Shown here one piece after another: positions 25,406-40,426 of a stretch of DNA of 64,000 nt. The DNA lies in the sequence record PQ306574.1; one strand, 5' to 3'. The position numbers were made by a program, and so were the translations under genes. This stretch comes from Escherichia phage vB_EcoM_PTE-Eco09. The stretch's first letter is position 1. Each line of letters begins with the position of its first letter. The notes beneath the pieces were generated by a model. It did not search any database. It was not told the DNA's origin and saw only the letters and a program-made list of their open reading frames with translations.

Positions 25406-25416
25406 TGTTTGTTCAA

Positions 25417-25441
25417 AGTCGCCCATAGTGGCGACTTTTTT
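25417..25441 (+). terminator. rho-independent terminator
   Basis: AGTCGCC-CATAGT-GGCGACT followed by TTTTT. Confidence 0.6.
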
Positions 25442-25452
25442 GTTATTGGGTG

Positions 25453-25481
25453 TTGACAATCGGATCGGGGTATAGCATAAT
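25453..25481 (+). promoter_or_regulatory. early promoter with conserved leader
   Basis: TTGACA-N17-CATAAT-GCACCC-ATCGAAACGGAGG. Confidence 0.5.
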
Positions 25482-25505
25482 GCACCCATCGAAACGGAGG
25501 AACAT

Positions 25506-25724
25506 ATGGAAACAGAAGAACAAGTCATTGCATATTTTCATCGTAAAAAGATGAAACTTAGAATCGAAAAGCAGTACATCAATCACTACATTGACCGAGT
25601 TCACTTAACAAGTACACCTTACCTATTCCGGTTGATAAACCCTAGAAAACGGTGGGAGAAGTTGGATAGAAACACAAAAATAATTGATAAGCTCACCCAG
25701 TGGTGGAATGAATACAACAAGTAA
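25506..25724 (+). CDS. hypothetical protein (72 aa)
   Basis: ATG ORF behind promoter cassette. Confidence 0.5.
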   Translation: METEEQVIAYFHRKKMKLRIEKQYINHYIDRVHLTSTPYLFRLINPRKRWEKLDRNTKIIDKLTQWWNEYNK

Positions 25725-25731
25725 AAAGTAG

Positions 25732-25765
25732 TTGACACTGAATAACTGGGGTAGTAAGATACTCC
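25732..25765 (+). promoter_or_regulatory. PeSL-like element: early promoter with stem-loop enclosing the -10
   Basis: TTGACA-N17-TAAGAT; inverted repeat GGGGTAGTA/TACTCCC; then ATCGAAACGA leader and GGAGAATCAAAATG. Confidence 0.55.
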
Positions 25766-25793
25766 CATCGAAACGAAACAAAGGAGAATCAAA

Positions 25794-26012
25794 ATGAAAT
25801 TTACTTGCACCGACTCTATCAGCAAGCACTTTGTAGTAGGCGAAGTATACGAATCTACTACCATTCGCCAGCGTGACCTGATGGGTCGCCTTTACAATCA
25901 GCCAGTATTCATTATTGGCGAAGAATTGTTCTACATTGAAAACCGTCCGTGGGTTGCTTTCAATAAACGAGGACGCAAGGTAGCAAAATTCGAACTTGTC
26001 ATTAAAAAGTAG
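25794..26012 (+). CDS. hypothetical protein (72 aa)
   Basis: ATG ORF behind PeSL-like cassette. Confidence 0.5.
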   Translation: MKFTCTDSISKHFVVGEVYESTTIRQRDLMGRLYNQPVFIIGEELFYIENRPWVAFNKRGRKVAKFELVIKK

Positions 26013-26047
26013 TTGACAGCATGAAACGGGGGTAGTAATATACCCCC
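26013..26047 (+). promoter_or_regulatory. PeSL-like element
   Basis: TTGACA-N17-TAATAT; perfect inverted repeat GGGGGTA/TACCCCC around -10; ATCGAAACGA leader. Confidence 0.55.
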
Positions 26048-26079
26048 ATCGAAACGAAATACACTTTAAGGAGAATCAA

Positions 26080-26229
26080 ATGAACAACTTTGACGCGGTA
26101 CTGAAAATGGCAATCGAAACTTACGCGGAGATCTCCGGCGAGAAAGTAGAGGACATTATCAAAGAATGTCAGAACTTTGAAAGCCAGACAGCCAAGAATG
26201 TTCAAATGTTGATGTTTGCGGTTGCATAA
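26080..26229 (+). CDS. hypothetical small protein (49 aa)
   Basis: MNNFDAVLKMAIETYAEISGEKVEDIIKECQNFESQTAKNVQMLMFAVA; SD AAGGAG; hand-derived. Confidence 0.4.
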   Translation: MNNFDAVLKMAIETYAEISGEKVEDIIKECQNFESQTAKNVQMLMFAVA

Positions 26230-26237
26230 AAAAGCAG

Positions 26238-26272
26238 TTGACAGCATATCACGGGAGTAGTAAGATACTCCC
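26238..26272 (+). promoter_or_regulatory. PeSL-like element
   Basis: TTGACA-N17-TAAGAT; inverted repeat GGGAGTA/TACTCCC. Confidence 0.55.
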
Positions 26273-26299
26273 ATCCCAAAACAACTAAGGAGTATCAAG

Positions 26300-26698
26300 A
26301 TGATTAAATTTCAAACTCGCAAAGACGTTCTGGACTTCGTTAAAGTTTTCGGTTACGCTGCATTGCAACATGCAATGGACAAAATGACCATCTCCCCAGA
26401 TCAGACTATGCTGATCCGTATGGTTAAAGCAACCGCCTACAAAAACGACATTACCCTCTCAGAAATCAACGACGGTAATACTGTCCGCGAGGTAATTGTT
26501 TCTTTCGAATCACCGAAAATTGGAGGTTTTCATACCACGATGTTAGGTGAAATCACTGTCACTGTATACGGGCAAGGTGGCGGAGTGTTTACCGTCAAAG
26601 AAGCAATGGAAAACGGAACACTGAACAAAGAAAAACTGGAATTTGTCCTGAAAATCATCAATGAGCGTAACGAAGCTCGCGATATTCTGGAAAGTTAA
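26300..26698 (+). CDS. hypothetical protein (132 aa)
   Basis: ATG ORF with SD behind PeSL-like cassette. Confidence 0.5.
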   Translation: MIKFQTRKDVLDFVKVFGYAALQHAMDKMTISPDQTMLIRMVKATAYKNDITLSEINDGNTVREVIVSFESPKIGGFHTTMLGEITVTVYGQGGGVFTVKEAMENGTLNKEKLEFVLKIINERNEARDILES

Positions 26699-26705
26699 TA
26701 AGGTG

Positions 26706-26729
26706 GGCGGGAGAAATCCCGCCTTTGTT
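26706..26729 (+). terminator. terminator-like hairpin
   Basis: GGCGGGA-GAAA-TCCCGCC followed by TTTGTTG. Confidence 0.5.
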
Positions 26730-26748
26730 GTGACGTGAGGAAAGGATA

Positions 26749-27150
26749 ATGATTAATGAGCTAATAGAAAACTATGGATTCGTTAAATATTCATGTTTAG
26801 AGTGTAAAGATGGTGACGTGATTCTACCGCCTCAGAAGAACCGTTTAAATGTTCTTTACGCTATTTCGGTTGATGATGAACTGGTATACATTGGTCAGAC
26901 TGTCAATCTCAGAAAGCGGATCAATTATTAACGGACTAGCATTAACAGACAAACACCAACAGCGGATACTCGCAAGAGTAAGAATATTCATAAGGCGCTA
27001 GAGGAAGGTAAGACAGTAACATTCTATTACCGCCAGTGCTTTGAGTTATATATTGAGAATCCAACGGGTAAAGATATTATAAGCACTGCCGATATCGAAG
27101 AACCTGTTTTGATCACCAAATTTAAACCAGAATGGAACACAAATTATGTC
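26749..27150 (+). pseudogene. GIY-YIG nuclease-like reading frame interrupted by one in-frame TAA (at about 26929-26931)
   Basis: N-part VLYAISVDDELVYIGQTVNLRKRINY, then TAA, then same frame stays open with GIY-YIG-like C-part (…ELYIEN…EEPVLITKFKPEWN); 3' end overlaps rnlA start. Confidence 0.4.
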
Positions 27151-28315
27151 AACAAAAGAAAACAACAAAAAAGTTTTAGCATTGTTCAAAAATCTGATGG
27201 CACTATGTGACGGATCTGATACGTTCTATTACAAAGATGAAATTACGGCGATGCAAACCCGTATGCGCATTTTTAGCTATCTGTACTTGAGCAAACCTGA
27301 AATGTGGAATAAACCAGATGCGTTAGAGTGTCGCGGGATCATGTTTGAAATTGACGATAAAGGTCGTCCGGTCCGCATCGCATCTCGTCCTATGGAGAAG
27401 TTTTTTAATTTGGGTGAGAATGATCGCGCTCGCTTTAAGCCGGAAGATGTGGAAATGGTCATGGACAAAATGGACGGTAGTCTAGTAAGCACATACATTG
27501 ATAACGGCTATGTTCAGTTGAAGTCTAAAGCGGCCTTGTACTCAAGCCAGGCAGAGAGAGCAAACGGTCTTCTGTATTCAGAGAAGTATGCGGATCTACG
27601 CGCTAAGATTGCTGATATTGGGTCTGATTATACTTTCAACTTTGAATATACAGCGCCCAGCAACCGAATTGTTGTAGAATATTCTGAACCGTCGCTAACA
27701 CTTCTGAATGTACGCCATAACGTCACAGGAGAGTACGTACCGCATCAAATGCTATTTTCTGACGCAATCCTACGTCCTCATCTGGTAAATGCGTTACAGG
27801 TTGATTCAGCGCGTTTTAGCAATATTCTTGATGAAGTTCGGACCGCAGAAGGTATCGAAGGAATTGTTGCACGCACTAAAGACGGTCAAATGTTCAAAGT
27901 GAAGAGTGAATGGTATATTGGTGTGCATAACATTAAAAACACATCGATGTTTCCTAATAACCTGATCTACTATGTCGTAGAAAGCGAAACCGATGATTTG
28001 CGTGCTGCATATGAAGGCGAACCGGAAGCACTGGAACGAATCGAGCTATTCGAGGAAGCATTCAGGTCTATTCTTCGCAATGCCTTCACGACAGCAACAG
28101 AATTTTATAACGCACACGCGGGAGAAGACAGAAAGACATATGCATCAAATGCGACTATCGAATCACGTAAACATGGTGATGCACAAGCATATATTTTCAT
28201 GTGTCTGATGATTGCATTTGATGGTCTTGATTATGACCGTATTCTGGATTCAATGAAAACTTACTATCTACGGAATTATAAGAAACTTATTCCGGCTGAT
28301 AAGATTGATTGGTAA
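27146..28315 (+). CDS. rnlA: RNA ligase 1
   Basis: 389 aa; nucleotidyltransferase motif I lysine in KMDGSL; size and neighbourhood as T4 gene 63. Confidence 0.8.
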   Translation: MSTKENNKKVLALFKNLMALCDGSDTFYYKDEITAMQTRMRIFSYLYLSKPEMWNKPDALECRGIMFEIDDKGRPVRIASRPMEKFFNLGENDRARFKPEDVEMVMDKMDGSLVSTYIDNGYVQLKSKAALYSSQAERANGLLYSEKYADLRAKIADIGSDYTFNFEYTAPSNRIVVEYSEPSLTLLNVRHNVTGEYVPHQMLFSDAILRPHLVNALQVDSARFSNILDEVRTAEGIEGIVARTKDGQMFKVKSEWYIGVHNIKNTSMFPNNLIYYVVESETDDLRAAYEGEPEALERIELFEEAFRSILRNAFTTATEFYNAHAGEDRKTYASNATIESRKHGDAQAYIFMCLMIAFDGLDYDRILDSMKTYYLRNYKKLIPADKIDW

Positions 28316-28359
28316 TAATAAGCGGGGCTAGTTCCCCGCCTTTTGTCGTTGGGGGTAAT

Positions 28360-28683
28360 ATGTCAAAGCTGATATACATTGTTATCATCTCTGTGTTGCT
28401 AGGGGTAGGTGGTAATATGTGGTGGGAAAATAAAAAGGAGGTAGATCGACTGAATCAGGAATTTACAGAGTATAAGAAAAAGACAGATGAAAAGATGAAG
28501 GTCGTAGACTCACTACAAAAGGAGATGTACGGAATAAGAACTAAGTTTGCAGAAGAACAAAACAAAGCAATGAAAGACGCTACACGAGGCTATGTAGTAG
28601 CACAAAAACCAAAGTTGGTAGAGAAACAGCTTAATGATTCATTTAAGGAGTTTACCGAAGAATTAAAGGAGGCTACTAAATGA
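28360..28683 (+). CDS. i-spanin-like protein (N-terminal TM, periplasmic coiled coil)
   Basis: MSKLIYIVIISVLLGVGG TM then charged coiled-coil-like region; next to pseT as T4 pseT.3; track ORF starts upstream at a non-ATG codon. Confidence 0.5.
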   Translation: MSKLIYIVIISVLLGVGGNMWWENKKEVDRLNQEFTEYKKKTDEKMKVVDSLQKEMYGIRTKFAEEQNKAMKDATRGYVVAQKPKLVEKQLNDSFKEFTEELKEATK

Positions 28684-28799
28684 GCATAGAAATATTGCCT
28701 ACACAAGAGCAGATAAGCAATTTTAATCTGGTTGATTATCTGTGGATAGGTGCAAGCATTATTATCCTGATGGTGTTTTCAATTTTCGTGATACACTGG

Positions 28800-29132
28800 A
28801 TGTTTAAGAAAGCACATAAGAATTTTCAGACCTCCATAATCCATGTCTTCGCTTTGCCTATTGTATTTGCGCTTTCTTCGTGTACAATGGACCATTATTC
28901 ACAGGAACCGAAAGTACATCCTCCACTACCAGCACCAATAGAAAAAGTTGACATTGACCTGAAAGTGGATACAATAGACGGTAAACCTAGAGTTTCTATG
29001 TCGTGGGAGGACTCCCAAAAATTCAGAGTCTGGCTTGCGGATATTAAGAGATATACACTTGAAAGTAAGTTGATCATGTGTTATTATCGAAAAGAACTTA
29101 ATGAGGAACGGTGCAAACCGAAGGAGAAATAA
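28800..29132 (+). CDS. o-spanin-like lipoprotein (the ORF could instead start at 28680)
   Basis: Internal ATG gives signal peptide MFKKAHKNFQTSIIHVFALPIVFALSSC with lipobox-like LSSC; Pro-rich mature part; position as T4 pseT.2. Confidence 0.45.
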   Translation: MFKKAHKNFQTSIIHVFALPIVFALSSCTMDHYSQEPKVHPPLPAPIEKVDIDLKVDTIDGKPRVSMSWEDSQKFRVWLADIKRYTLESKLIMCYYRKELNEERCKPKEK

Positions 29133-30010
29133 TGCCGAAATGTGAAGTGATTTTAACCGTTGGTTGTTCTGGGTCCGGTAAAACTACATGGGCGATGGAA
29201 ACATGTAAACGGTTTAGTAATTATCGTAATGTGAATCGTGATGATCTTCGTCTTATGTTGTTTGGTGTTGACTCACATTTGAAATACAAGTATACTAAGG
29301 AAAAAGAAAAGCTGGTAGAGTCTATTCAGAGAATGATTGCTCGTGAGACTCTATCACGCGGATTGAGTATCATTATCTCCGATACCAACCTGAAAGAAAA
29401 ACATCGTGTATTCTACAAAGAACTTGCAAAAGAATTTAACGCGGTGTATACTGAACAAGTGTTCAATGAATCATTTGAGACACTAAAGAAACGTAATTTC
29501 TATCGCGGTGAGAAAGCAATTCCACTTTCTCATTTGCGCAACCAATTTTATCTGATGCAGGAATATATGGGTCAAGAAGTATACAAACCGAATACCATGC
29601 TGCCAAAGGCAGTGATCTTTGATATTGATGGGACATTAGCGGATAAGGGCGGTCGTCATCCGTTTGACTGGACAAAGGTCAAAGAAGATAAACCTCGTCC
29701 GCAAGTGGTCGAAATGCTTAAACTGTATCGTGATAATGGTTATCGTATCATTACATGCTCAGGGCGTGAGGATGTTTGCGAAGAAGATACTCTGCAATGG
29801 TTGCGTGAACAGGGTATTGAACCGAGTGATCACTTTCAACGTGAAACTAATGATCGTCGTCCTGATCATGAAGTGAAGAAAGAGATCTTCTTCTCTGAAA
29901 TTGCACCGCGTTATCATGTTGTTTTGGCGGTAGATGACCGTGATCAAGTGGTTGACATGTATCGCTCAATTGGTGTAGAATGTTTTCAGGTTAACTACGG
30001 AGACTTTTAA
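29132..30010 (+). CDS. pseT: polynucleotide 5'-kinase / 3'-phosphatase
   Basis: P-loop GCSGSGKTT, HAD phosphatase DxDGT (IFDIDGTLA), C-terminus VDDR-QVV-MYRSIGVEC-QV--GDF matching T4 Pnk; start at ATG after GGAG. Confidence 0.9.
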   Translation: MPKCEVILTVGCSGSGKTTWAMETCKRFSNYRNVNRDDLRLMLFGVDSHLKYKYTKEKEKLVESIQRMIARETLSRGLSIIISDTNLKEKHRVFYKELAKEFNAVYTEQVFNESFETLKKRNFYRGEKAIPLSHLRNQFYLMQEYMGQEVYKPNTMLPKAVIFDIDGTLADKGGRHPFDWTKVKEDKPRPQVVEMLKLYRDNGYRIITCSGREDVCEEDTLQWLREQGIEPSDHFQRETNDRRPDHEVKKEIFFSEIAPRYHVVLAVDDRDQVVDMYRSIGVECFQVNYGDF

Positions 30011-30213
30011 TGTTTACCGATAAACTCAAGCAATTAGGCGAAGCACTTGCTAAACGTGGTTTTAGTGTTGATATTGAACCAGCGCCAGTTATGCCGTTTA
30101 GCGATGAACGTCGCAGTGTATATGTCATCATGAGAAATAATCATGGTGTGAATACATTCAATGTAAAACAGTATAGCGACGGATCAGTAGAATACTTTCG
30201 CGTATACGGTTAA
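30010..30213 (+). CDS. hypothetical protein (67 aa)
   Basis: ATG ORF overlapping pseT stop. Confidence 0.45.
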   Translation: MFTDKLKQLGEALAKRGFSVDIEPAPVMPFSDERRSVYVIMRNNHGVNTFNVKQYSDGSVEYFRVYG

Positions 30214-30234
30214 TTAATATGTGAGGATTATATT

Positions 30235-30741
30235 ATGTTGTCACAAACTTACATGCAGATCGCCTATCTGATCGCAAAGAACTCTAAATGTGTTTCGTGG
30301 AAGGTAGGCGCACTGATCGAAAAAGACGGGCGAATCATTTCTACTGGATTTAACGGAACTCCAGCAGGGCAAGTAAATTGTAGCTGTCATGCACATAAAA
30401 ACGGTTGGCTGGATGATGACGGCAAAATGATCCCAGAAAAACGACCAGAGCATAGTGCATGGTCACAGAAAAACGAGATCCACGCTGAATTAAATGCTAT
30501 TTTGTTTGCTGCCCGTAGCGGTGTATCGATTGAAGGCGCTAGTATGTGGTGTACTGCTTCACCGTGTCCAGATTGCGCTAAAGCAATTGCAAACAGTGGA
30601 ATTAAATATCTATACTATTGCGACACATATGATCGAAATGGTGGGCGTGATTGGGCTGATATTCTGAATAATGCAGATATTACAATCACGCGTATTCCAA
30701 AAGCATTATTGACTGATTTGAAGGGTATTGATAATGACTGA
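30235..30741 (+). CDS. cd: dCMP deaminase
   Basis: Cytidine/dCMP deaminase zinc motifs HAELNA and PCPDC. Confidence 0.85.
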   Translation: MLSQTYMQIAYLIAKNSKCVSWKVGALIEKDGRIISTGFNGTPAGQVNCSCHAHKNGWLDDDGKMIPEKRPEHSAWSQKNEIHAELNAILFAARSGVSIEGASMWCTASPCPDCAKAIANSGIKYLYYCDTYDRNGGRDWADILNNADITITRIPKALLTDLKGIDND

Positions 30742-31048
30742 ACAAGTTGATAATATCGCACTTCGTGAAGCACTAAAGAAAATGTTTTCGGTCGGTACTC
30801 ACTCTTTTCAGTTTACTAAGAAAGATGGTACTGTCCGTGAGATGATCGCCACGCGAGATCCGGCACTGATGCCGTTTGAAACATACGAAAAGTGGTTAGT
30901 TCCGAATGTTGAAAAACCGCGTAAAGAATCAGAAACATCTTTGCCAGTATATGAAATTGCAGTTGAAGGTTTCCGTAGTTTTGGGCTTGATAGTCTGATT
31001 AATGTAGACGGGCTGACTCCAGCGCAGATCGTCGAAATTTATAAATAA
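30734..31048 (+). CDS. hypothetical protein (about 105 aa)
   Basis: ATG ORF overlapping cd stop. Confidence 0.45.
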   Translation: MTEQVDNIALREALKKMFSVGTHSFQFTKKDGTVREMIATRDPALMPFETYEKWLVPNVEKPRKESETSLPVYEIAVEGFRSFGLDSLINVDGLTPAQIVEIYK

Positions 31049-31089
31049 TTCATCATTAAACTGTATTGATTTGAAGAGGTAATAAAATT

Positions 31090-31413
31090 ATGACCGTTAA
31101 AACTCCTAAAGCACTTGGTGACTATGTGATCATTGAAGCTAAAGCAGAAAGCGCAGGGACAGAAGTAAAAAGCTCTATGGGGATCATTATTGAGCAAAAG
31201 CGCACTATGGGCGAGATTCCGCTGGTAGGTAAGATTATTGATATCGGTGAAACGGTAGATAAAGAATTGCTGGGTAAAACTGTTTTACTGCCACATGGCA
31301 AGATGAATAAAGTTCCTCATCCAGACGTTATTAACGGCGTTAAGAAGGAAGAAGAGATCGACCTGAAATGGACTGTAACACACAAACAGAATATTGTGGT
31401 AGTTTACGGTTAA
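31090..31413 (+). CDS. 31: co-chaperonin gp31 (GroES-like)
   Basis: 107 aa; size, position next to cd, GroES-like pattern (GDYVII, mobile-loop-like region, NKVPHP). Confidence 0.7.
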   Translation: MTVKTPKALGDYVIIEAKAESAGTEVKSSMGIIIEQKRTMGEIPLVGKIIDIGETVDKELLGKTVLLPHGKMNKVPHPDVINGVKKEEEIDLKWTVTHKQNIVVVYG

Positions 31414-31424
31414 TGATTTTAAAC

Positions 31425-31445
31425 GGCGGGAAATAATCCCGCCTA
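31425..31445 (+). terminator. terminator-like hairpin after gene 31
   Basis: GGCGGGA-AATAA-TCCCGCC followed by T-rich run. Confidence 0.5.
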
Positions 31446-31495
31446 TATTTTGGCTATATGATTTTGTAAGTTATTGATTATTAAGGAATTTTATT

Positions 31496-31660
31496 ATGAA
31501 AACTATGAATGTAAACATCCACGAAATCCATACCGAAGTATTCACCGAAGAAGACCAGTTTGGTGTATGGGTAAATCCTCATTCGATTACTATCGATATT
31601 CCTAATGACGATTATGATCCGTTCTCTCTGATTAGCGAGATTAGTTTTAATGACTTCTGA
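31496..31660 (+). CDS. hypothetical small acidic protein (54 aa)
   Basis: MKTMNVNIHEIHTEVF…; SD AAGGAA; hand-derived. Confidence 0.3.
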   Translation: MKTMNVNIHEIHTEVFTEEDQFGVWVNPHSITIDIPNDDYDPFSLISEISFNDF

Positions 31661-32129
31661 AATTGATATCTATGCGGGTGGACCTTATCCATCGGGTGAA
31701 TTGAGTAATTTCAATAAAAGACCATTCCGTCTATTTGGTTGCGATATTAACAGCACAGAAGGATTTTTACAGGGGCTAAGATTTAAGAACCCTCAGAGAC
31801 AAAGAGAAATCTTTTTGATGCACGGTGGCAAAGCAAAAAGAACCGGAAGAACTGAAAAGATTGAGAATCACCTGTTATATTTTCAGGGTCGCCAGATTCA
31901 TCGAATGAGTGAGCATTATTACAGACTGGTACATCTGGCATTTGTTACGATGGCACGGAATAACCCAGAATTTTGTAAAGCATTACTCGCTACCGGAAAT
32001 AAGAAATTACGTCATAGTATAGGTGGAACTGATCCGTTAAAGACTATATTGACTGAATCGGAATTTTGTAGTATCCTCAATGATATTCGTGAACGTTTAA
32101 CAAAACGAGGTGAAAATGTCAATTCTTAA
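31650..32129 (+). CDS. NADAR (YbiA/DUF1768)-like domain protein
   Basis: 159 aa; motifs in NADAR order (GELSNF; STEGFLQGLRF; GGKAKRTGR; ALLATGNKKL-HSIGGTDP). Confidence 0.5.
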   Translation: MTSEIDIYAGGPYPSGELSNFNKRPFRLFGCDINSTEGFLQGLRFKNPQRQREIFLMHGGKAKRTGRTEKIENHLLYFQGRQIHRMSEHYYRLVHLAFVTMARNNPEFCKALLATGNKKLRHSIGGTDPLKTILTESEFCSILNDIRERLTKRGENVNS

Positions 32130-33612: not shown

Positions 33613-34081
33613 TAATGAAGGGGCGAAAGCCCCTAAACCTAAAAAATTGTCAAAGAAAGAGCAACGCCAGATCCTGAAAATGAAATATGGTGGACGTTGT
33701 GCCTATTGTGGCGAGGAACTAGGGGATCGCTGGCACGCGGACCACATCAAACCAGTATTGCGACGCTCAAAGGTAGTCTATGATGAAAATGGACGAATTG
33801 CCCGTAATGATGATGGATCATGGAAATATAAGGTTGTAGGAATGCATAAACCGGAGCATGATATACTTGATAACATGAATCCGGCGTGTGTGCAATGCAA
33901 TCTTTATAAAAGCTGTATGGGCTTAGAATACTGGCGTAAGTGTATACGCGAGAACTTCCAGAAGTACATTCAGCGCAATATGGGATTGCGAGCGGCTAAA
34001 CGCTTTGGCTTGCTGTCAATCCACGACCAGCCAGTAGAATTTTATTTCGAAAAGTACGATCGCGAGCATCAAGAAAAATAA
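33605..34081 (+). CDS. HNH endonuclease-like protein
   Basis: CAYCG…HADHIKP…N…CVQCN arrangement; true start may be downstream of the GNRA hairpin at about 33621-33637. Confidence 0.6.
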   Translation: MCDNEGAKAPKPKKLSKKEQRQILKMKYGGRCAYCGEELGDRWHADHIKPVLRRSKVVYDENGRIARNDDGSWKYKVVGMHKPEHDILDNMNPACVQCNLYKSCMGLEYWRKCIRENFQKYIQRNMGLRAAKRFGLLSIHDQPVEFYFEKYDREHQEK

Positions 34082-34093
34082 TTCAAAAAGTTG

Positions 34094-34122
34094 TTGACAG
34101 GGGATCGGTGATCCCCTATACT
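34094..34122 (+). promoter_or_regulatory. PeSL-like element (promoter with palindromic spacer)
   Basis: TTGACA-GGGGATCGGTGATCCCC-TATACT; leader ACACAC-ATCAAAACGA…GGAGAATCAAAAATG. Confidence 0.55.
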
Positions 34123-34167
34123 ACACACATCAAAACGAAACACACTTTCTTAAACGGAGAATCAAAA

Positions 34168-34479
34168 ATGAAATACATCGTAACGCTGCCAATGATTGAC
34201 TTCGACGGAACCATGAACACCCAGAAGACCATGAGCGCGGAGAACCAACTGAAAAACGCTACCCTGATTCGTGAAGTTCGCAAGGCACTGGCAAAAGAAT
34301 TTAACACCAAAATTCATTCTGTAACTGGCGAACGTTTCGCGGATCATCTTGATATCAACATCAAACCAGTGCGCAACGGTGTTATCTCTGTAACAACCAG
34401 CCGCCCACATGCTGACGCTGATAATCTGACCGCTCGCGCAGAAGATGTAATTATGACCGTTATCATGGAAAAACTTTAA
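34168..34479 (+). CDS. hypothetical protein (103 aa); paralog of ORF 36360-36647
   Basis: Shares AKEFN-K block with 36360 ORF (REVRKALAKEFNTKI vs VRDAVAKEFNFKF). Confidence 0.5.
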   Translation: MKYIVTLPMIDFDGTMNTQKTMSAENQLKNATLIREVRKALAKEFNTKIHSVTGERFADHLDINIKPVRNGVISVTTSRPHADADNLTARAEDVIMTVIMEKL

Positions 34480-34487
34480 AAAAGTTG

Positions 34488-34516
34488 TTGACAGGGGATC
34501 ACCGATCCCCTATACT
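34488..34516 (+). promoter_or_regulatory. PeSL-like element
   Basis: TTGACA-GGGGATCACCGATCCCC-TATACT; spacer palindrome kept with its centre inverted relative to 34100. Confidence 0.55.
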
Positions 34517-34550
34517 ACACACATACCAACGAGATATAGGAGAATCAAAA

Positions 34551-34718
34551 ATGTTCCAGACTAAAGCAGAATGCGAAGCATACATTGTAGCAAACCACGG
34601 CGAAGATTATCTGAAATTTGACATTGTAGTAGCACAGAAGATCACCGGAATGGTTGCAAAATATCTGGGTGTTAAAGAAGGTTACTATCCGAGCAACGCA
34701 CCGGAAATCAACAAATAA
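34551..34718 (+). CDS. hypothetical small protein (55 aa); duplicated at 37835-38002
   Basis: MFQTKAECEAYIVANHGEDYLKFDIVVAQKITGMVAKYLGVKEGYYPSNAPEINK; near-identical second copy. Confidence 0.55.
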   Translation: MFQTKAECEAYIVANHGEDYLKFDIVVAQKITGMVAKYLGVKEGYYPSNAPEINK

Positions 34719-34721
34719 TAG

Positions 34722-34756
34722 TTGACAATGATTAAAGGGAGTAGTAAGATACTCCC
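34722..34756 (+). promoter_or_regulatory. PeSL-like element
   Basis: TTGACA-N17-TAAGAT; inverted repeat GGGAGTA/TACTCCC. Confidence 0.55.
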
Positions 34757-34782
34757 ATCAAGACAACAAACGGAGAATCAAA

Positions 34783-34962
34783 ATGAAAGCTATCGAAGTT
34801 CAGAAGTACATGGAAATCATCGTTGAAGGTAAAGCACATACAGTATTGACTACCCACGTAGGATATGATAAAAATGTGCATATGCTGGTAGACAATATCG
34901 GCTGGATGAAGTTTAATCCTAACGAGAACGTACAAGCTCAAGAAATGACCATCCCTTTCTAA
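34783..34962 (+). CDS. hypothetical small protein (59 aa)
   Basis: MKAIEVQKYMEIIVEGKAH…; hand-derived. Confidence 0.4.
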   Translation: MKAIEVQKYMEIIVEGKAHTVLTTHVGYDKNVHMLVDNIGWMKFNPNENVQAQEMTIPF

Positions 34963-34974
34963 GAGGAATATATT

Positions 34975-35253
34975 ATGATGCGAATTACTGCAACGCTGGA
35001 TAAGACACACAAAGAAAGATTTTTCGGTATGATCTTAAAAACGCCGATTTTCGATAATTACCTTTATGTTGACTATGAAGGTCACATTAGCTATAAATGT
35101 AAAAATGATATTCGTGATTCCTTTGGTGATAAATCACAATCTGATATTCATGACCACTGGTGGAACCATGACGAACCTTTACGAGTTATCGCAGTTGATG
35201 TAAAAACAACAAAAGAAGCTGATAAGGTAGTGAATGATTATGAGCAAATTTAA
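34975..35253 (+). CDS. hypothetical protein, paralog family A member 1
   Basis: Y-Y-D block, His-rich HDHWW motif and VIAVDV block shared with ORFs 35677, 36000, 36701. Confidence 0.5.
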   Translation: MMRITATLDKTHKERFFGMILKTPIFDNYLYVDYEGHISYKCKNDIRDSFGDKSQSDIHDHWWNHDEPLRVIAVDVKTTKEADKVVNDYEQI

Positions 35254-35497
35254 AGAATACAAAGCATATCAACAGATCCTGCGAGTATACGCACCAGAGT
35301 TCGCCGAAAAGATGATGGAAGATGCATCAAAATGCCCGTCCTTTTCTGGAAACAAAAACCATTATTCTACTCGTATTGTATCATGGAAAGAAACATGCTA
35401 CACTCAACAGTGGATAAACGTTTTCTCAAAAACAATTGGTTGGAATGGTGTTAATTATGGGTATTCAGAGTCAATTCAAAGATTATCGAGTGTATAA
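35234..35497 (+). CDS. hypothetical protein, paralog family B member 1
   Basis: F-EYKAY…AEKMMEDASKCPSF…IVSWKET shared with next ORF. Confidence 0.5.
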   Translation: MIMSKFKEYKAYQQILRVYAPEFAEKMMEDASKCPSFSGNKNHYSTRIVSWKETCYTQQWINVFSKTIGWNGVNYGYSESIQRLSSV

Positions 35498-35675
35498 AGA
35501 AATCTGTGCTGTATTTGATGAGAAAACAGCAGATAAAATGATGAAAGAAGCGTCACAATGTTCATCTTTTGTTGATAACAAAGATTTAAGAGTAAATGAG
35601 ATCGTGTGCTGGAGCGACACGAAACATGAAATTGTATGGCGTACCGTGTACTATAGCCGCGACCGAGGATTATAA
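35457..35675 (+). CDS. hypothetical protein, paralog family B member 2
   Basis: FKDYRVY…ADKMMKEASQCSSF…IVCWSDT; tandem paralog. Confidence 0.45.
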   Translation: MGIQSQFKDYRVYKEICAVFDEKTADKMMKEASQCSSFVDNKDLRVNEIVCWSDTKHEIVWRTVYYSRDRGL

Positions 35676-35676
35676 A

Positions 35677-35985
35677 ATGAAATTAACTAAAAAGATTTTC
35701 CCAGAATTGCGTAACTGTCTGTTACTGGTTACTGAATATAAGCCGTATACGATCTACTTGTACGTTGATGAAAATCTGAAAATCCGTTACTATGATTATA
35801 CGTCTCCAGTGATGCAATCATTTTCTCACTCGATAGCAAATAACTGTATGAATCACAATCATTGGGTATCAAAAACGGATGACGATGCGTCAGAAGTTGT
35901 AGTGGTTGCATGGAATCTATCACCAGCGGAAGCAGATCAAGCACGCATTCAGCATTACGCGAAAAACAACGGTCAAACTTTATAA
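35677..35985 (+). CDS. hypothetical protein, paralog family A member 2
   Basis: YTIYLYVDENLKIRYYDY…NHNHW…VVVVAW. Confidence 0.45.
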   Translation: MKLTKKIFPELRNCLLLVTEYKPYTIYLYVDENLKIRYYDYTSPVMQSFSHSIANNCMNHNHWVSKTDDDASEVVVVAWNLSPAEADQARIQHYAKNNGQTL

Positions 35986-35999
35986 GTGAGGAAAATATT

Positions 36000-36278
36000 A
36001 TGTTCAAAGTAGGTGATAAGTTTATTCTTAGTCGTGATATTCTCCCTAATCTGAAAGGTTGTATCATCAATCCTAGTAAAAATTCATGGTTTTATCTGTT
36101 TATCGACGACAAACTGAATGTACGCGCAGAATATAAAGAAGGTCTTCGTACTGGTCTAGGTTTCTTTCACGATCATGATCATAGCCATTGGCTAAACGGT
36201 GGATTCGAAGCAACGGTGCTAGCGGTTGATGTGACTTACACGAACATCATAGAAAAATATCAAAAAATTATTTTATAA
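36000..36278 (+). CDS. hypothetical protein, paralog family A member 3
   Basis: FYLFIDDKLNVRAEY…HDHDHSHW…VLAVDV. Confidence 0.45.
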   Translation: MFKVGDKFILSRDILPNLKGCIINPSKNSWFYLFIDDKLNVRAEYKEGLRTGLGFFHDHDHSHWLNGGFEATVLAVDVTYTNIIEKYQKIIL

Positions 36279-36284
36279 AAAGTA

Positions 36285-36318
36285 TTGACACCGGATCGGG
36301 GATATAGCATAATATCCC
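36285..36318 (+). promoter_or_regulatory. PeSL-like element
   Basis: TTGACA-N17-CATAAT; inverted repeat GGGGATAT/ATATCCCC around -10; ATCGAAACGAGATACACTTTC leader. Confidence 0.55.
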
Positions 36319-36359
36319 CATCGAAACGAGATACACTTTCTAACTAGGAGAATCAAATT

Positions 36360-36647
36360 ATGGCATACATTACTATCACTCTGAAAGTTAACAAATTCGC
36401 TCACGCTGCACACGAAACCGATAATGCAATCCGTAACAACAAGTTCGCACGTCTGGTACGCGATGCGGTAGCTAAAGAGTTCAACTTCAAATTTGCAGAT
36501 GGTAAAGTTATCACTAAATGGACTCATGACGGCGAAACTAAAGTAGAACTTGCTGATAACTTCGCAAATCAGGAATATGCACACCGTCGCATTAATGAAA
36601 TTATCAGCGATGAACTCTACTACGGTGTACAGGAAGGACTGTTTTAA
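36360..36647 (+). CDS. hypothetical protein (95 aa); paralog of ORF 34168-34479
   Basis: ATG ORF behind PeSL; shared AKEFN block. Confidence 0.5.
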   Translation: MAYITITLKVNKFAHAAHETDNAIRNNKFARLVRDAVAKEFNFKFADGKVITKWTHDGETKVELADNFANQEYAHRRINEIISDELYYGVQEGLF

Positions 36648-36652
36648 TATAC

Positions 36653-36676
36653 GGGGCGTTAAGCCCCACCCCTTTT
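36653..36676 (+). terminator. terminator-like hairpin
   Basis: GGGGC-GTTAA-GCCCC then CCCCTTTT; same hairpin sequence recurs at 40433. Confidence 0.5.
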
Positions 36677-36700
36677 CATCCAACTATTGAGGATAATACT

Positions 36701-37009
36701 ATGAAAGATAATATCTTTGAATTTACCCGCGAAAATCTCCCAATGTTCCGAAAGTCTCTGCTTAAACTAGAGAACAGTAATTATGATGTATATTTTTACA
36801 TCACCGAAGACCTAGAGATCCTTTACGCAGATTATCCAGGTCCGATCCGTACCTTCGAAGAAGCATCGCAGTATAAAAATGTTCACGGTCATGAGCACTG
36901 GTTACGAGAAAACCCAGGTCGCAAGAAAGCACGCGTTAAAGTGATTGCGATTGACGTAACACCAGCATACGCCGACCGGATTGCACTGAATGATTATTTG
37001 TCTAAATGA
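36701..37009 (+). CDS. hypothetical protein, paralog family A member 4
   Basis: YDVYFYITEDLEILYADY…HGHEHW…VIAIDV. Confidence 0.5.
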   Translation: MKDNIFEFTRENLPMFRKSLLKLENSNYDVYFYITEDLEILYADYPGPIRTFEEASQYKNVHGHEHWLRENPGRKKARVKVIAIDVTPAYADRIALNDYLSK

Positions 37010-37016
37010 TTTTATT

Positions 37017-37042
37017 AGCCGACCTTAGTGTCGGCTTTTTTA
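37017..37042 (+). terminator. rho-independent terminator
   Basis: AGCCGAC-CTTAGT-GTCGGCT followed by TTTTTT. Confidence 0.6.
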
Positions 37043-37065
37043 TTGCATAAAATTTTAAAAAAGTT

Positions 37066-37094
37066 GTTGACACCAGATCACGCCTATAGCATAA
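37066..37094 (+). promoter_or_regulatory. early promoter with conserved leader
   Basis: TTGACA-N17-CATAAT-ACACCC-ATCGAAACGAGATACCACTTAGGAGAATCAAACAATG. Confidence 0.5.
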
Positions 37095-37135
37095 TACACC
37101 CATCGAAACGAGATACCACTTAGGAGAATCAAACA

Positions 37136-37405
37136 ATGGCGCTGACTAAAACCACTACCAACTTTGCAAAACGTCACGGCTTCGACCTTGAAATCAATAG
37201 CTTTAACGATTACACCCTTCTGTGTGTATATGAAATCGAAAATGATTGCGAGTGGATGTTCAGCTATCGCGTAAACGAAGACGGATCTTTCACTTGGAAC
37301 GGAAATATCTATCTTGCACAGGAAGTAAAAGAAGAACTACCGGCGACTATCAAAGATGAGAAGCATTTACGTCAAGTTTTAAAATTTATTTCTGAAAATA
37401 TCTAA
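37136..37405 (+). CDS. hypothetical protein (89 aa)
   Basis: ATG ORF behind promoter cassette. Confidence 0.5.
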   Translation: MALTKTTTNFAKRHGFDLEINSFNDYTLLCVYEIENDCEWMFSYRVNEDGSFTWNGNIYLAQEVKEELPATIKDEKHLRQVLKFISENI

Positions 37406-37413
37406 AAAAGTTG

Positions 37414-37442
37414 TTGACACCAAAGTAAGAACATAGCATAAT
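37414..37442 (+). promoter_or_regulatory. early promoter with conserved leader
   Basis: TTGACA-N17-CATAAT-ACACAC-ATACCGAAACGA. Confidence 0.5.
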
Positions 37443-37475
37443 ACACACATACCGAAACGAACTGGAGAATCAAAA

Positions 37476-37757
37476 ATGAAATTCATCAAAGCAACCGAAA
37501 TCCTGAAAAACAAAGAAGCATACATCGGAAACATCGTTGGTATGAACATTCGCGGCGCTGGTAGCCAGTGGACCAAACTGGTTGATGTTAAAGCTAAAGG
37601 CGATAAAATTGAGTTCACTGTAAAAATGCTTACTCATAACGCACATATGGGTATCAAGACAAAAACGATGGCAGCAGATAAAAGCATCAACTATCAGGAT
37701 CTGGGCGATTGGCTGAACTGGTGCAAAATACACAACATCGAAACTAATCACGAATAA
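37476..37757 (+). CDS. hypothetical protein (93 aa)
   Basis: ATG ORF behind promoter cassette. Confidence 0.5.
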   Translation: MKFIKATEILKNKEAYIGNIVGMNIRGAGSQWTKLVDVKAKGDKIEFTVKMLTHNAHMGIKTKTMAADKSINYQDLGDWLNWCKIHNIETNHE

Positions 37758-37771
37758 TTTTAAAAAAGTTG

Positions 37772-37800
37772 TTGACGGGGATCGGGAGATCCCCTATAAT
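37772..37800 (+). promoter_or_regulatory. PeSL-like element
   Basis: TTGACG-GGGATCGGGAGATCCCC-TATAAT; palindromic spacer. Confidence 0.55.
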
Positions 37801-37834
37801 GCACACATACCAACGAGATATAGGAGAATCAAAA

Positions 37835-38002
37835 ATGTTCCAGACTAAAGCAGAATGCGAAGCATATATCATTGAAACCCACGGCGAAGATTATCTGAAA
37901 TTTGACATTGTAGTAGCACAGAAGATTGTAGGGATGGTTGCGAAATACCTCGGAGTTAAAGAAGGTTACTATCCTAGCAACGCACCAGAAATTAACAAAT
38001 AA
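37835..38002 (+). CDS. hypothetical small protein (55 aa); second copy of ORF 34551-34718
   Basis: MFQTKAECEAYIIETHGEDYLKFDIVVAQKIVGMVAKYLGVKEGYYPSNAPEINK; 3 aa differences from first copy. Confidence 0.55.
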   Translation: MFQTKAECEAYIIETHGEDYLKFDIVVAQKIVGMVAKYLGVKEGYYPSNAPEINK

Positions 38003-38015
38003 TTTTATAAAAAGT

Positions 38016-38044
38016 GTTGACAGGGGAGGATAACTCCCCTACAA
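38016..38044 (+). promoter_or_regulatory. PeSL-like element
   Basis: TTGACA-GGGGAGGATAACTCCCC-TACAAT; then ACAACC-ATCAAGACGAGATACCACTTAGGAGAATCAAACAATG. Confidence 0.55.
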
Positions 38045-38085
38045 TACAACCATCAAGACGAGATACCACTTAGGAGAATCAAACA

Positions 38086-38337
38086 ATGGCTAACATCGAA
38101 ACCGCAAAGAAAATCGCTAAAGACCTGAACGTTAAAGGCTTCCGTAAACTGAAATTACAGCGTGTACGCTACACCATCGGCAAACAGTGCTCTTTCATGA
38201 GCGAAGAAGTTGCTAACAGCCTGATTGATAACCTGATTGCGGCTGGCTGGGAAGTTGCGGATCTGAAAACTTGCCGCGAACTGGCTAAAAAAGGTCTTTT
38301 AGATTCTGTTACTATCAAACCAATGGGGGCAGCGTGA
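38086..38337 (+). CDS. hypothetical protein (83 aa)
   Basis: ATG ORF behind PeSL; first codons MANIE shared with ORF 40214. Confidence 0.5.
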   Translation: MANIETAKKIAKDLNVKGFRKLKLQRVRYTIGKQCSFMSEEVANSLIDNLIAAGWEVADLKTCRELAKKGLLDSVTIKPMGAA

Positions 38338-38579
38338 AAAGAAAATTAATTAAACGCAATAAGGAATTTCTTAATAACTGCATTAAGGCCGCTAATGGTT
38401 GGCCTTTGTGCCTCTTCCTTTATGATTGGTATTCTAAACAATCAGTTGAGGAAGCACGACACTATAAGAAGATCAGAAAAGAATCACACACAAAACAAGG
38501 TCGCATTAACGGACTTTACTTAATGTGGCACGGTAAAGAACCGACTAAAATCTGTGCTGGGTTAAAGGGTCGTATATGA
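38334..38579 (+). CDS. hypothetical basic protein (81 aa); first gene of coupled four-gene module
   Basis: Start overlaps upstream stop; stop overlaps next start. Confidence 0.45.
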   Translation: MKRKLIKRNKEFLNNCIKAANGWPLCLFLYDWYSKQSVEEARHYKKIRKESHTKQGRINGLYLMWHGKEPTKICAGLKGRI

Positions 38580-39292
38580 AACAAAAATTAATATTCTGCA
38601 ACTTTGACGGATCGGGAATAATGGGGCTAGAATGGGCTAAAGCAGGTCATAAGGTAGTCTGCTTTAATGCGGATGACGCCGACCACGGTACATACAAAAA
38701 GTATAATACCAGATTTGAACATCCAAACATTACCTATGTAAACACATGGATTGATTTGAATTGGCTGGAAAGAGCAATGGACCTTGAATGGGGGAAACCG
38801 GATATTATCTTTGCATTCCCACCGTGCACCAATTTAGCTGTTAGTGGCGCTGCGCACTTTGAACGAAAGAAACTAGAACAAGGACCATTGATTCAAGTTC
38901 ATGATGTAAGGGCAGCTAAAATAACCGCTTATTTGGGTGAATGGCTAGGAGTTCCCTACATGATAGAGAATCCTGTAAGCGTTATCTCTAGTATGTGGCG
39001 TAAGCCTGATTACATGTTCCATCCGTGGGAATATGGCGGTTATTTGCCGGAAGATGATAAACATCCTACTTTTCCTGAGTATATCGCCGCCCGTGATATG
39101 TACCCGAAAAAGACTTGCTTATGGACCGGACAAGGCTTTATAATGCCAGAAAAGAAACCGTTGCAGATTAATAAAGGGTACAGTAAACAGCATTCTAAGC
39201 TAGGCGGGAAAGGAACGAAAACAAAGACTATCAGGTCACTTACCCCGCGAGGATTCGCAAAGGCAGTATTTGAAGCCAATAAGGATCTATGA
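38576..39292 (+). CDS. DNA C5-cytosine methyltransferase-like protein (minimal, 238 aa)
   Basis: Motif order and spacing of C5-MTase catalytic domain: FDGSGIMG (motif I-like), AFPPC (PCQ-like with Cys), IENPV (ENV-like); too short for a canonical target recognition domain. Confidence 0.45.
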   Translation: MKQKLIFCNFDGSGIMGLEWAKAGHKVVCFNADDADHGTYKKYNTRFEHPNITYVNTWIDLNWLERAMDLEWGKPDIIFAFPPCTNLAVSGAAHFERKKLEQGPLIQVHDVRAAKITAYLGEWLGVPYMIENPVSVISSMWRKPDYMFHPWEYGGYLPEDDKHPTFPEYIAARDMYPKKTCLWTGQGFIMPEKKPLQINKGYSKQHSKLGGKGTKTKTIRSLTPRGFAKAVFEANKDL

Positions 39293-39621
39293 TGAGATTG
39301 TTTAAGTATTCGCTAACGTCAAATTACGATAAACAAGGTCATTGCATCCGTTGCCCTGATTGTCATAGCCATAACATCGAAAGCAAGATCACCGATCATA
39401 TTGATGGACTTTGGTCGCCAGCAAGTGAAATAGAATACTATTGCGCTGATTGTGGAATTGTAGTAGCATATTGGGCATACGGATCATATGATCCATACTT
39501 CCAGATGGGAGAGCGTTCAATCCCTGCGCTTATCTGGAGAATTAAGAACAATATCCGGCATTCATGGGATGAGTTCTTAAAAGATATTGATTTACGTGAT
39601 GACCCATTCAGGAGACTATAA
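39289..39621 (+). CDS. zinc-ribbon protein (110 aa)
   Basis: CIRCPDC … CADCG four-cysteine arrangement; overlapping start with upstream stop. Confidence 0.45.
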   Translation: MMRLFKYSLTSNYDKQGHCIRCPDCHSHNIESKITDHIDGLWSPASEIEYYCADCGIVVAYWAYGSYDPYFQMGERSIPALIWRIKNNIRHSWDEFLKDIDLRDDPFRRL

Positions 39622-39622
39622 C

Positions 39623-40141
39623 ATGAACCGTTTAACGCCTAAACGCCGTTACTATACCAATACTAAAAACTTTGTCATCTCTGTTTATGATGCATGGTTA
39701 GAAGATGGCTATATCAACATGAACCCAGATTATCAGCGTCCTTTAGTATGGGACACCGAAAACAAACGTATGTTTATTGAAAACCTGATTAATGATTTTC
39801 CGGTTGGTGCTATCGCAATGGCTAAGATTGATGATGGCTCTCGCTATGAGATCGAAATCGTGGACGGTAAACAGCGTTTAAACGCAATATTCTCCTTTAT
39901 GAAGGATGAGTTTAGCATTGCTTGTAATGATGATTCTATGTTGTATTACAGTGATTTTACGCCAGCAGAAAAGCGACGTTTCCGAAATCTCGGACTACCC
40001 GCGATCATGATGGAAGAGAGCACACGAGAAGACCGATTAGAGTATTTCTACAAAACAAACTTTTTCGGTGTACCTCAATCGGAAGAACATCGCCAGCATG
40101 TGATTGCATTATTGCAAGATGAACAATTAAAAAATAACTAA
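39623..40141 (+). CDS. DUF262 / ParB-like domain protein (about 172 aa) without nuclease domain
   Basis: DYQRPLVW and EIVDGKQRLNAI resemble DUF262 signatures (FQRxxVW, DGQQR) of GmrSD-type N-terminal domains; start at ATG after GGAG. Confidence 0.45.
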   Translation: MNRLTPKRRYYTNTKNFVISVYDAWLEDGYINMNPDYQRPLVWDTENKRMFIENLINDFPVGAIAMAKIDDGSRYEIEIVDGKQRLNAIFSFMKDEFSIACNDDSMLYYSDFTPAEKRRFRNLGLPAIMMEESTREDRLEYFYKTNFFGVPQSEEHRQHVIALLQDEQLKNN

Positions 40142-40148
40142 AAAGTTG

Positions 40149-40177
40149 TTGACAGGGGATCGGTGATCCCCTATAAT
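40149..40177 (+). promoter_or_regulatory. PeSL-like element
   Basis: TTGACA-GGGGATCGGTGATCCCC-TATAAT; same spacer palindrome as at 34100. Confidence 0.55.
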
Positions 40178-40213
40178 GCACACATACCGAAACGAACTAC
40201 TAAGGAGTATCAA

Positions 40214-40426
40214 ATGGCTAACATCGAAATCATCATTACCGACGTAACTTATGACCGCATTAACGAAATCGGTACTGCATTACTGGAAGATGGAACAACT
40301 CGTACCATCAACTACGCAGAATACGTTGAAATGCGTGGTTGTATTAAACGAGTAGGAAAATATATCCTGATTGAAAAAGACTATTCAGGATACACCTTAG
40401 AGCAATTGCTTGATGGTGCATTATAA
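40214..40426 (+). CDS. hypothetical protein (70 aa)
   Basis: ATG ORF (MANIEIIITDV…) behind PeSL. Confidence 0.5.
   Translation: MANIEIIITDVTYDRINEIGTALLEDGTTRTINYAEYVEMRGCIKRVGKYILIEKDYSGYTLEQLLDGAL

Follow-up and report, generated by a model that had tools for sequence, protein, structure and literature searches.

The cassette family and its locus

The DNA analyzed here is a 64,000-nt stretch of Escherichia phage vB_EcoM_PTE-Eco09 (sequence record PQ306574.1; hereafter the window), an RB49-like T4-type coliphage of the genus Krischvirus. Our subject is a family of promoter cassettes in the interval 25453-40216, which the RB49 and Phi1 annotations place between a homologue of open reading frame (ORF) 229, situated beside nrdB, and alt, and which is orthologous to RB49 ORF228-ORF190, including the region named HPR3. 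The cassettes form two clusters, 25453-26300 and 34094-40216, on either side of a 7.3-kb block of conserved genes (denA to ORF212) in which a search with the cassette profile found no copy. Elements of this architecture were defined in RB49 and phi1 as promoter-early stem-loops (PeSLs) by Arbiol, Comeau, Kutateladze, Adamia and Krisch (2010, Genome Biol Evol 2:140; PMC2839356), who counted about 50 of them per genome, mostly in hyperplastic regions and upstream of orphan ORFs, and described each as an AT-rich tract, a sigma-70 consensus promoter, a poly-G/poly-C stem-loop in one of five possible positions, a ribosome-binding site (RBS) and a start codon.

A megablast search of the phage collection with window positions 25000-41000 matched 64 records, nearly all of them Escherichia or Shigella Krischvirus (RB49, Phi1, JSE, GEC-3S, PHB13 and others), with identities of 94-99%. 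A single place covering at least 80% of the query was matched in just five of the 64, indicating that the relatives are very similar in sequence and mosaic in content. Several window copies have the same 40-nt promoter core as a copy in RB49 or phi1, and the GenBank record of GEC-3S already has promoters annotated at these cassette sites.

The pattern TTGACA-N15-19-TANNNT was matched 30 times against 5.2 expected, with 27 matches on the + strand, and the leader ATCGAAACGA (at most one mismatch) 17 times against 6.5 expected, always on the + strand; none of 100 shuffled sequences reached either count. A profile built from 13 aligned copies picked by eye, and then run over the whole window, recovered 17 copies, all on the + strand, 13 of which lie in the interval (Table 1) and four outside it, at 15988, 17249, 17632 and 22481. 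The “at least 17 copies” of the first-pass annotation therefore stand as a count for the whole window, while the interval itself holds 13. An independent repeat finder recovered the same family, with 12 copies in one repeat set (D1) and the copy at 34722 added by another (D3). Copies of the family recur as dispersed direct repeats with 60-80% identity across about 55-80 nt.

All 13 cassettes of the interval have a 17-nt spacer between a -35 box of the form TTGAC(A/G) and the -10 box, which is CATAAT in four of them (cassettes 1, 8, 9 and 10), and they match the promoter consensus at 10-12 of 12 positions. The stop codon of the preceding gene lies within about 5-45 nt upstream, and 12 of the 13 have an A/T-rich tract, AAAAAGTTG or TAAAAAGTAG, ahead of the -35 box. 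Downstream, the leader ATCGAAACGA is found in eight copies and GGAGAATCAA in 12 (each with up to one mismatch), followed in every case by a GGAG-type RBS, an ATG and an ATG-initiated ORF of 49-132 amino acids (aa). The layout proposed in the first-pass annotation, in which promoter, leader, Shine-Dalgarno sequence, ATG and small ORF follow one another, is indeed present, and far above chance. The GGAG found in the RBS of all 13 cassettes is also the motif cleaved by the T4 RegB endoribonuclease, which inactivates early mRNAs. The window copies also show the C or T at position -12 and the C-rich stretch from -3 to -1 that were reported for early promoters of RB49, where the predicted early-promoter consensus agrees with 5′-end mapping of early transcripts (Nolan et al. 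2006, PMC1524935).

Outside the interval, the cassette at 22481-22543 carries a spacer hairpin (GCGGGGA-GAAA-TCCCCGC, -15.1 kcal/mol, z-score -5.6) and is followed by a 55-aa ORF. Directly after alt there is a promoter-plus-hairpin element (42562-42625; TTGACT, N17, TATACT), which was missed by the cassette profile because its leader differs; it has an 11-bp imperfect hairpin (ACGGGGACTAGT.../...ACTAGCCCCGT) across the -10 box, then TTTT, and a 274-aa ORF downstream. A degenerate cassette-like promoter (29059-29134; TTGAAA, N17, TATTAT, then ATCGAAAAGA) lies in pseT.2, at its 3′ end and ahead of the start of pseT (29132).

Table 1. Cassettes, variable regions and neighboring genes, in window coordinates (MFE, minimum free energy; energies in kcal/mol)
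Feature	Position	Strand	-35 box	-10 box	ATG	Hairpin or terminator	Remarks
Cassette 1 with upstream terminator	25415..25508	+	TTGACA 25453	CATAAT 25476-25481	25506	Terminator hairpin 25415-25438, then T-run; hairpin over -10 box degenerate	Leader ATCGAAACGG; profile 58 bits
Variable region A	25506..26698	+					Four ORFs: 25506-25724, 25794-26012, 26080-26229, 26300-26698
Cassette 2	25722..25796	+	25732	TAAGAT	25794	~25747-25766, across -10: GGGGTA/TACTCC with G.U pair, -7.8	
Cassette 3	26003..26082	+	26013		26080	26028-26047, over -10: GGGGGTA/TACCCCC, -14.0, z -4.1	
Cassette 4	26228..26302	+	26238		26300	26253-26272: GGGAGTA/TACTCCC, -11.9	
Conserved block	26749..34081	+					denA, rnlA, pseT.3, pseT.2, pseT, cd.2, cd, 31.1, 31, 30.3, DNA ligase, HNH ORF212 (names from RB49 annotation)
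Cassette 5	34082..34170	+	34094	TATACT	34168	34100-34116, spacer: GGGGATC-GGT-GATCCCC, -12.8	Orthologue of RB49 PeSL211/210
Variable region B, part 1	34168..38337	+					14 small ORFs, 55-103 aa, PHROG families of unknown function
Cassette 6	34476..34553	+	34488			34494-34510: GGGGATC-ACC-GATCCCC	Chimera of RB49 PeSL210/209 and PeSL206/205 types
Cassette 7	34712..34785	+	34722		34783	34737-34756, over -10: GGGAGTA/TACTCCC, -12.2	
Cassette 8	36273..36362	+	36285	CATAAT	36360	36298-36319, 8 bp: GGGGATAT/ATATCCCC, -14.3	
Cassette 9 with upstream terminator	37017..37138	+	37067	CATAAT	37136	Terminator 37017-37036, then T-run; no internal hairpin	
Cassette 10	37402..37478	+	37414	CATAAT	37476	No hairpin; MFE 0.0	PeSL-type; profile 63 bits
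Cassette 11	37760..37837	+	TTGACG 37772		37835	37777-37794: GGGGATC-GGGA-GATCCCC, -13.9	phi1-type PeSL193/191
Cassette 12	38005..38088	+	38017	TACAAT	38086	38023-38039: GGGGAG-GATAA-CTCCCC, -13.6	
Variable region B, part 2	38334..40141	+					Four-gene run without internal cassette: 81, 238, 110, 172 aa
Cassette 13	40137..40216	+	40149	TATAAT	40214	40155-40171: GGGGATC-GGT-GATCCCC	12/12 consensus match
70-aa ORF	40214..40426	+					Behind cassette 13, immediately upstream of alt; phrog_10679, unknown function
alt	40494-42545						Named after PHB13 annotation

Variable gene content and exchange between cassettes

Positions 24000-43000 of the window were compared by pairwise BLAST with RB49, PHB13, Phi1, JSE, ELT3, SFHK24, FL04 and KMB43. 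All eight relatives have the tested genes of the conserved block, with 87-100% amino acid identity, and the ORFs of both variable regions come and go: ORF 25794 is missing from ELT3 and ORF 26080 from JSE and SFHK24, RB49 carries ORF192 inserted at cassette 11, and an extra 180-bp ORF is found at cassette 13 in ELT3, SFHK24 and FL04. The window, in its turn, is without the RB49 ORF209-206 block, ORF211, ORF196.1-195 and ORF192. The first-pass annotation had named a fixed set of cassette-flanked ORFs as evidence that would speak against its proposal; their presence differs among the eight relatives, and it is the denA-ORF212 block that stays constant.

Altogether, 12 distinct insertion, deletion or replacement events distinguish the window from these relatives, and in nine of them both junctions lie in cassettes, which make up 7% of the region (P ~ 4e-8 for junction enrichment under a per-base null). 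Such a pattern might also arise if the cassettes were alike through independent selection for a strong promoter and RBS and indels were merely tolerated there, with no recombination drive: viable indels must lie between genes, many of the intergenic gaps in the variable regions are cassettes, and three of the 12 events fall at cassette-free gene boundaries. We nevertheless regard this explanation as highly improbable. The enrichment survives a gene-boundary null (P = 0.005, with junctions spread over 38 gene boundaries, 13 of them cassette-bearing), and the copies also agree outside functional positions, in AAAAAGTTG ahead of the -35 box, in CACACAT behind the -10 box and in stretches of the leader, for example GATACCACTTAGGAGAATCAAACA in cassettes 9 and 12. 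Moreover, the junction cassettes are clean chimeras of two parents, with crossovers within stretches of identity. Finally, mini-circles of ORF192 and ORF210 were detected by inverse polymerase chain reaction, and their cassette-to-cassette joints, located between the -10 box and the ATG, were sequenced (PMC2839356). The window shows the genomic footprint of cassette-to-cassette exchange, and the tie between cassettes and recombinational shuffling to which the first-pass annotation pointed is supported by the comparison with relatives.

Three-way comparison revealed a visible crossover zone in three chimeric cassettes, namely cassette 6 (34488) of the window and the ELT3 cassettes at 2233 and 10320. 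In its 5′ flank, its ACC loop and its TATACT box, cassette 6 agrees with the RB49 cassette that precedes ORF209; at most about 10 nt past the -10 box it changes over to the leader of the one that precedes ORF205. Each of the two ELT3 copies combines two window cassettes, and there the crossovers lie elsewhere. None of 58 database relatives has the ORF210 homologue, cassette 6 and the ORF205 homologue joined without a break; among the top matches listed, all stop at query positions 349-354, which correspond to the 3′ end of cassette 6, at the start codon. This joint marks the cassette-to-cassette deletion of RB49 ORF209-206, which none of the 58 shares; the joint at cassette 11, by contrast, is common to 54 of them.

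Site-specific recombination at one fixed point was ruled out, as the crossover zones differ between events; their spread along the cassettes indicates homologous rather than site-specific exchange. Integrons offer an analogy, in that there, too, single-ORF modules can leave as circles and be taken up again at repeated sites that fold into hairpins. They rely, however, on a dedicated tyrosine recombinase acting on folded single-stranded attC; no such recombinase is evident here, and the crossover points are scattered as expected for homologous recombination.

It could also be argued that ORF turnover is due mainly to something else, for instance homing endonucleases or the homology that paralogous ORFs share, and that the cassettes are bystanders. 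Variable region B does have an HNH endonuclease gene at its border (33605-34081, homologous to ORF212), and it contains four paralogue sets, consistent with duplication by unequal exchange: 34551/37835 (93% identity), 35240/35457 (39%), 34168/36360 (both phrog_7474) and a four-member family (34975-35253, 35677-35985, 36000-36278 and 36701-37009; about 92-102 aa, 26-31% identity) which shares H-x-H-W and V-I-A-(V/I)-D-V motifs and whose members are mostly parted by ordinary short gaps, not cassettes. These sets include a 216-bp repeat with 91% identity (repeat family D4). Three events lie away from cassettes. In JSE and KMB43, positions 35459-36243 are replaced; FL04 has an inserted 180-bp ORF at 39623-39626; and PHB13, alone among the genomes compared, carries a 612-bp ORF (7562-8173) between 31.1 and 31 (window site 31041-31067). 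As the junction of the PHB13 ORF is away from a cassette, this ORF may represent another type of mobile gene. As the main source of turnover, however, such agents are very doubtful: most junctions lie inside cassettes, not ORFs, and the single-ORF gains and losses (25794, 26080, 34168 and RB49 ORF192) end exactly at two cassettes.

When 20 ORFs were scanned against PHROGs, every one matched an existing family (in variable region A, one PHROG of unknown function each), and the ORFs downstream of the cassettes fall in families of unknown function, as expected downstream of PeSLs. A single protein, of 238 aa (38576-39292), carries a functional label: it matches phrog_757 ‘DNA methyltransferase’ (E 3e-90) and contains the motif FPPC; Pfam, NCBIfam and PDB sequence searches gave no match. 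It is encoded in the cassette-free run of region B, in which start and stop codons overlap at the first three gene junctions and the fourth gene begins directly after the stop of the third. The last product of this run, of 172 aa (39623-40141), consists of a stand-alone GmrSD_N/DUF262 domain (Pfam E 5.9e-20) and lacks the nuclease domain found at the C terminus of GmrSD restriction enzymes, and the 110-aa product is zinc-ribbon-like by a weak Pfam match; no other matches emerged from the Pfam scan of ten ORFs. That the shuffled ORFs are host-takeover or anti-defence genes, as had been suggested, is a conjecture which the Pfam, NCBIfam and PDB scans neither support nor dismiss.

Stem-loops of the cassettes

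An internal G-rich hairpin is present in 10 of the 13 cassettes, with energies of -7.8 to -14.3 kcal/mol. In nine of the 10 these are 2.5-5.3 standard deviations below shuffled sequence, and the hairpin of cassette 2, with its G.U pair, is weaker (1.3 standard deviations). The hairpin is located in the -35/-10 spacer in five cassettes (5, 6, 11, 12 and 13) and across the -10 box in another five (2, 3, 4, 7 and 8); two more (1 and 9) have a canonical terminator just upstream, and cassette 10 has neither. The inverted repeat in or around the spacer or -10 box to which the first-pass annotation drew attention is therefore real for 10 copies and does not extend to cassettes 9 and 10, which have no internal hairpin. 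Every internal hairpin precedes the predicted transcription start of the cassette that holds it, and its RNA form is therefore possible only in transcripts arriving from upstream.

As canonical intrinsic terminators the internal hairpins were ruled out: none of the 10 is followed by a U-run, and an intrinsic-terminator scan picked up none of them. A search of the whole window with Rfam at gathering thresholds yielded no RNA family, and the hairpins are therefore not a curated RNA element. Scanning IMG/VR for TTGACAGGGGATCNNNGATCCCCTA gave seven stretches on only two contigs (150-165 kb), and this hairpin type looks rare in that collection. A different short hairpin, GGGGCGTTAAGCCCC, occurs in the same form at 36654-36670 and 40433-40447, after the cassette-driven ORFs 36360-36647 and 40214-40426, and looks like a repeated terminator module.

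For the analysis of covariation, cassettes were gathered from the eight relatives and pairs were counted in three register-consistent classes. In the spacer class one pair shifts from T-A to G-C, and the loops vary freely; in the GGGAGTA/TACTCCC class, located over the -10 box, one pair occurs as A-U, G-U and G-C; and the stem GGGGATAT/ATATCCCC of cassette 8 is replaced in orthologues by GGGTGTAT/ATACACCC, with two adjacent pairs changed on both sides, a covariation score reached by no shuffle. Pairing is thus kept through sequence change, and the covariation is real but small. One of the cases listed in the first-pass annotation does not belong here: GGGGATCGGTGATCCCC and GGGGATCACCGATCCCC have the same 7-bp stem and differ only in the 3-nt loop, which is reverse-complemented, and the GGT/ACC pair was accordingly rejected as stem covariation, being a loop inversion only.

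Hairpins of the form GGGGATC-NNN-GATCCCC with a GGT or ACC loop are found at window positions 34100-34116, 34494-34510 and 40155-40171, as well as at RB49 12503, JSE 12540 and PHB13 13101, and the loop state differs between orthologous cassettes of close relatives. The two states look like the result of a minute hairpin inversion, by template switching or arm-to-arm exchange, or of a swap between cassettes. In addition, a GATC (Dam site) occupies promoter position 9-11 in seven of the 13 cassettes (1, 5, 6, 8, 9, 11 and 13), with a second GATC at position 17 in the four GGGGATC...GATCCCC hairpins. Neither GATC/Dam nor the loop inversion appears in the text of the 2010 PeSL paper (PMC2839356), beyond which the present analysis goes only in these two respects and in the lack of U-tracts after the internal hairpins.

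These features raise the possibility that the hairpins act mainly at the DNA level, as palindromic operators, as cruciforms or single-strand hairpins that tune the promoter or nucleate recombination, or as Dam-methylation-sensitive sites. The hairpins are situated inside the promoter, not directly after the upstream stop codon, and have no U-tracts; the promoter cores contain 11 GATC in 377 nt against about two expected at window density, although the copies are related and the counts non-independent; and the exact inversion of the GGT/ACC loop suggests a palindrome that was extruded or copied as DNA. We consider a mainly DNA-level role unlikely. When the stem-loop of PeSL211/210, the RB49 orthologue of cassette 5 (34094), was placed between a promoter and lacZ, expression was cut about as much as by rrnB T1 (PMC2839356), and the variation in hairpin position, stem sequence and loop length (3-6 nt) is more in keeping with a need for structure than with a fixed protein site. 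In view of the GATC sites, the loop inversion and the missing U-tracts, an additional DNA-level role of the palindromes retains a small probability. The more specific proposal that they are methylation- or supercoil-sensitive early-promoter switches, or structures at which recombination starts (e.g. by cruciform cleavage), appears slightly less probable still; if true, it would mean that ORFs are moved by hairpin-initiated, and not purely homology-driven, exchange.

The cassettes as promoter-early stem-loops

Taken together, the window cassettes are very probably the PeSLs of an RB49-like Krischvirus, with promoter, read-through-hairpin and recombination roles. The identification made in the first-pass annotation is upheld by the shared genus and locus (RB49 ORF228-ORF190) and by the presence of all the sequence-testable defining features, including the association with indels, most of which have both junctions inside cassettes, and crossovers within the cassette. 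The element is thus already known, down to the locus. The repeat family on its strand and in its positions, the hairpins with their limited covariation, the concentration of indel junctions in cassettes and the chimeras are all observed in the DNA itself, while promoter, terminator and mini-circle activity come from the literature on orthologous copies, and we infer that every window copy would behave like the assayed ones. The latter, PeSL211/210, PeSL206/205 and PeSL193/192, belong to the ORF190-212 region of RB49 and phi1 and fall in the second cluster of the window, which is HPR3 of that paper (PMC2839356). The promoter of PeSL206/205, the type represented by the 3′ part of cassette 6, gave high lacZ expression of about 13,000 Miller units (PMC2839356).

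Comparison with known systems shows no difference in kind from the PeSLs of RB49 and phi1, with which the window shares the TTGACA-N17-TATAAT-like promoter, the G(n)-loop-C(n) stem, the orphan ORFs and the link to indel junctions; it differs only by its own mosaic. The concept was later extended to the T4/PST and KVP40/nt-1 pairs (Comeau, Arbiol and Krisch 2014, PMC4122927), whose PeSLs are likewise composite promoter/terminator repeats in variable regions at indel junctions. They have, however, another promoter consensus, TTTACW...TAYWAT or TTGYVH...TAWWAT, and stems of the form AGNA-loop-TCNT or A3-4G3-loop-C3T3-4 (PMC4122927), as opposed to the G-run/loop/C-run of the RB49 type found in the window. 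Early promoters of the T4 type, which are recognized by sigma-70 (PMC2988021, PMC1524935), have near-consensus boxes, an A-rich upstream tract and early-gene orientation in common with the cassettes, but neither an embedded hairpin nor shuffling through repeats is part of what defines an ordinary early promoter.

Each cassette of ~80-120 bp would then have three roles. Its near-consensus sigma-70 promoter, together with the A-rich tract, would recruit unmodified host RNA polymerase right after infection, and the small downstream ORF would be transcribed through the conserved leader and the GGAG RBS. The hairpin, present only in read-through RNA from the previous promoter, may attenuate, terminate or stabilize that transcript, with the canonical terminator upstream standing in where the internal hairpin is missing, and each ORF would thereby become roughly autonomous. 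As dispersed repeats, the cassettes would also allow the very active homologous recombination of the phage to cross over between them, so that ORFs are deleted, inserted or swapped, via excised mini-circles as proposed by Arbiol et al. (PMC2839356), and a functional chimeric cassette remains.

It should be kept in mind that several observations weigh against this reading. Judged by sequence, termination by the internal hairpins would be non-canonical, given that no U-run follows any of the 10, and only one stem-loop, of the spacer class, was assayed as a terminator (PMC2839356). Cassette 10 has neither a hairpin nor an upstream terminator. The covariation amounts to only 4-5 pairs among sequences related by duplication, and several of the shuffle controls, in the spacer and GGGAGTA classes, are not extreme. 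On the side of recombination, three of the 12 events took place away from cassettes, and for a deletion in FL04 the 216-bp, 91%-identical repeat of ORF paralogues may have mattered no less than the adjoining cassettes.

PeSLs are a published explanation for the shuffling of small accessory genes in T4-like phages, in which each gene remains expressible, and the window provides another clean example, from the same genus and locus as the original definition, so that its value is confirmatory. Many more Krischvirus genomes are now at hand than the two of the 2010 comparison; the link between cassettes and indel junctions holds in every relative examined, and a fresh cassette-to-cassette deletion is visible in the window phage itself.

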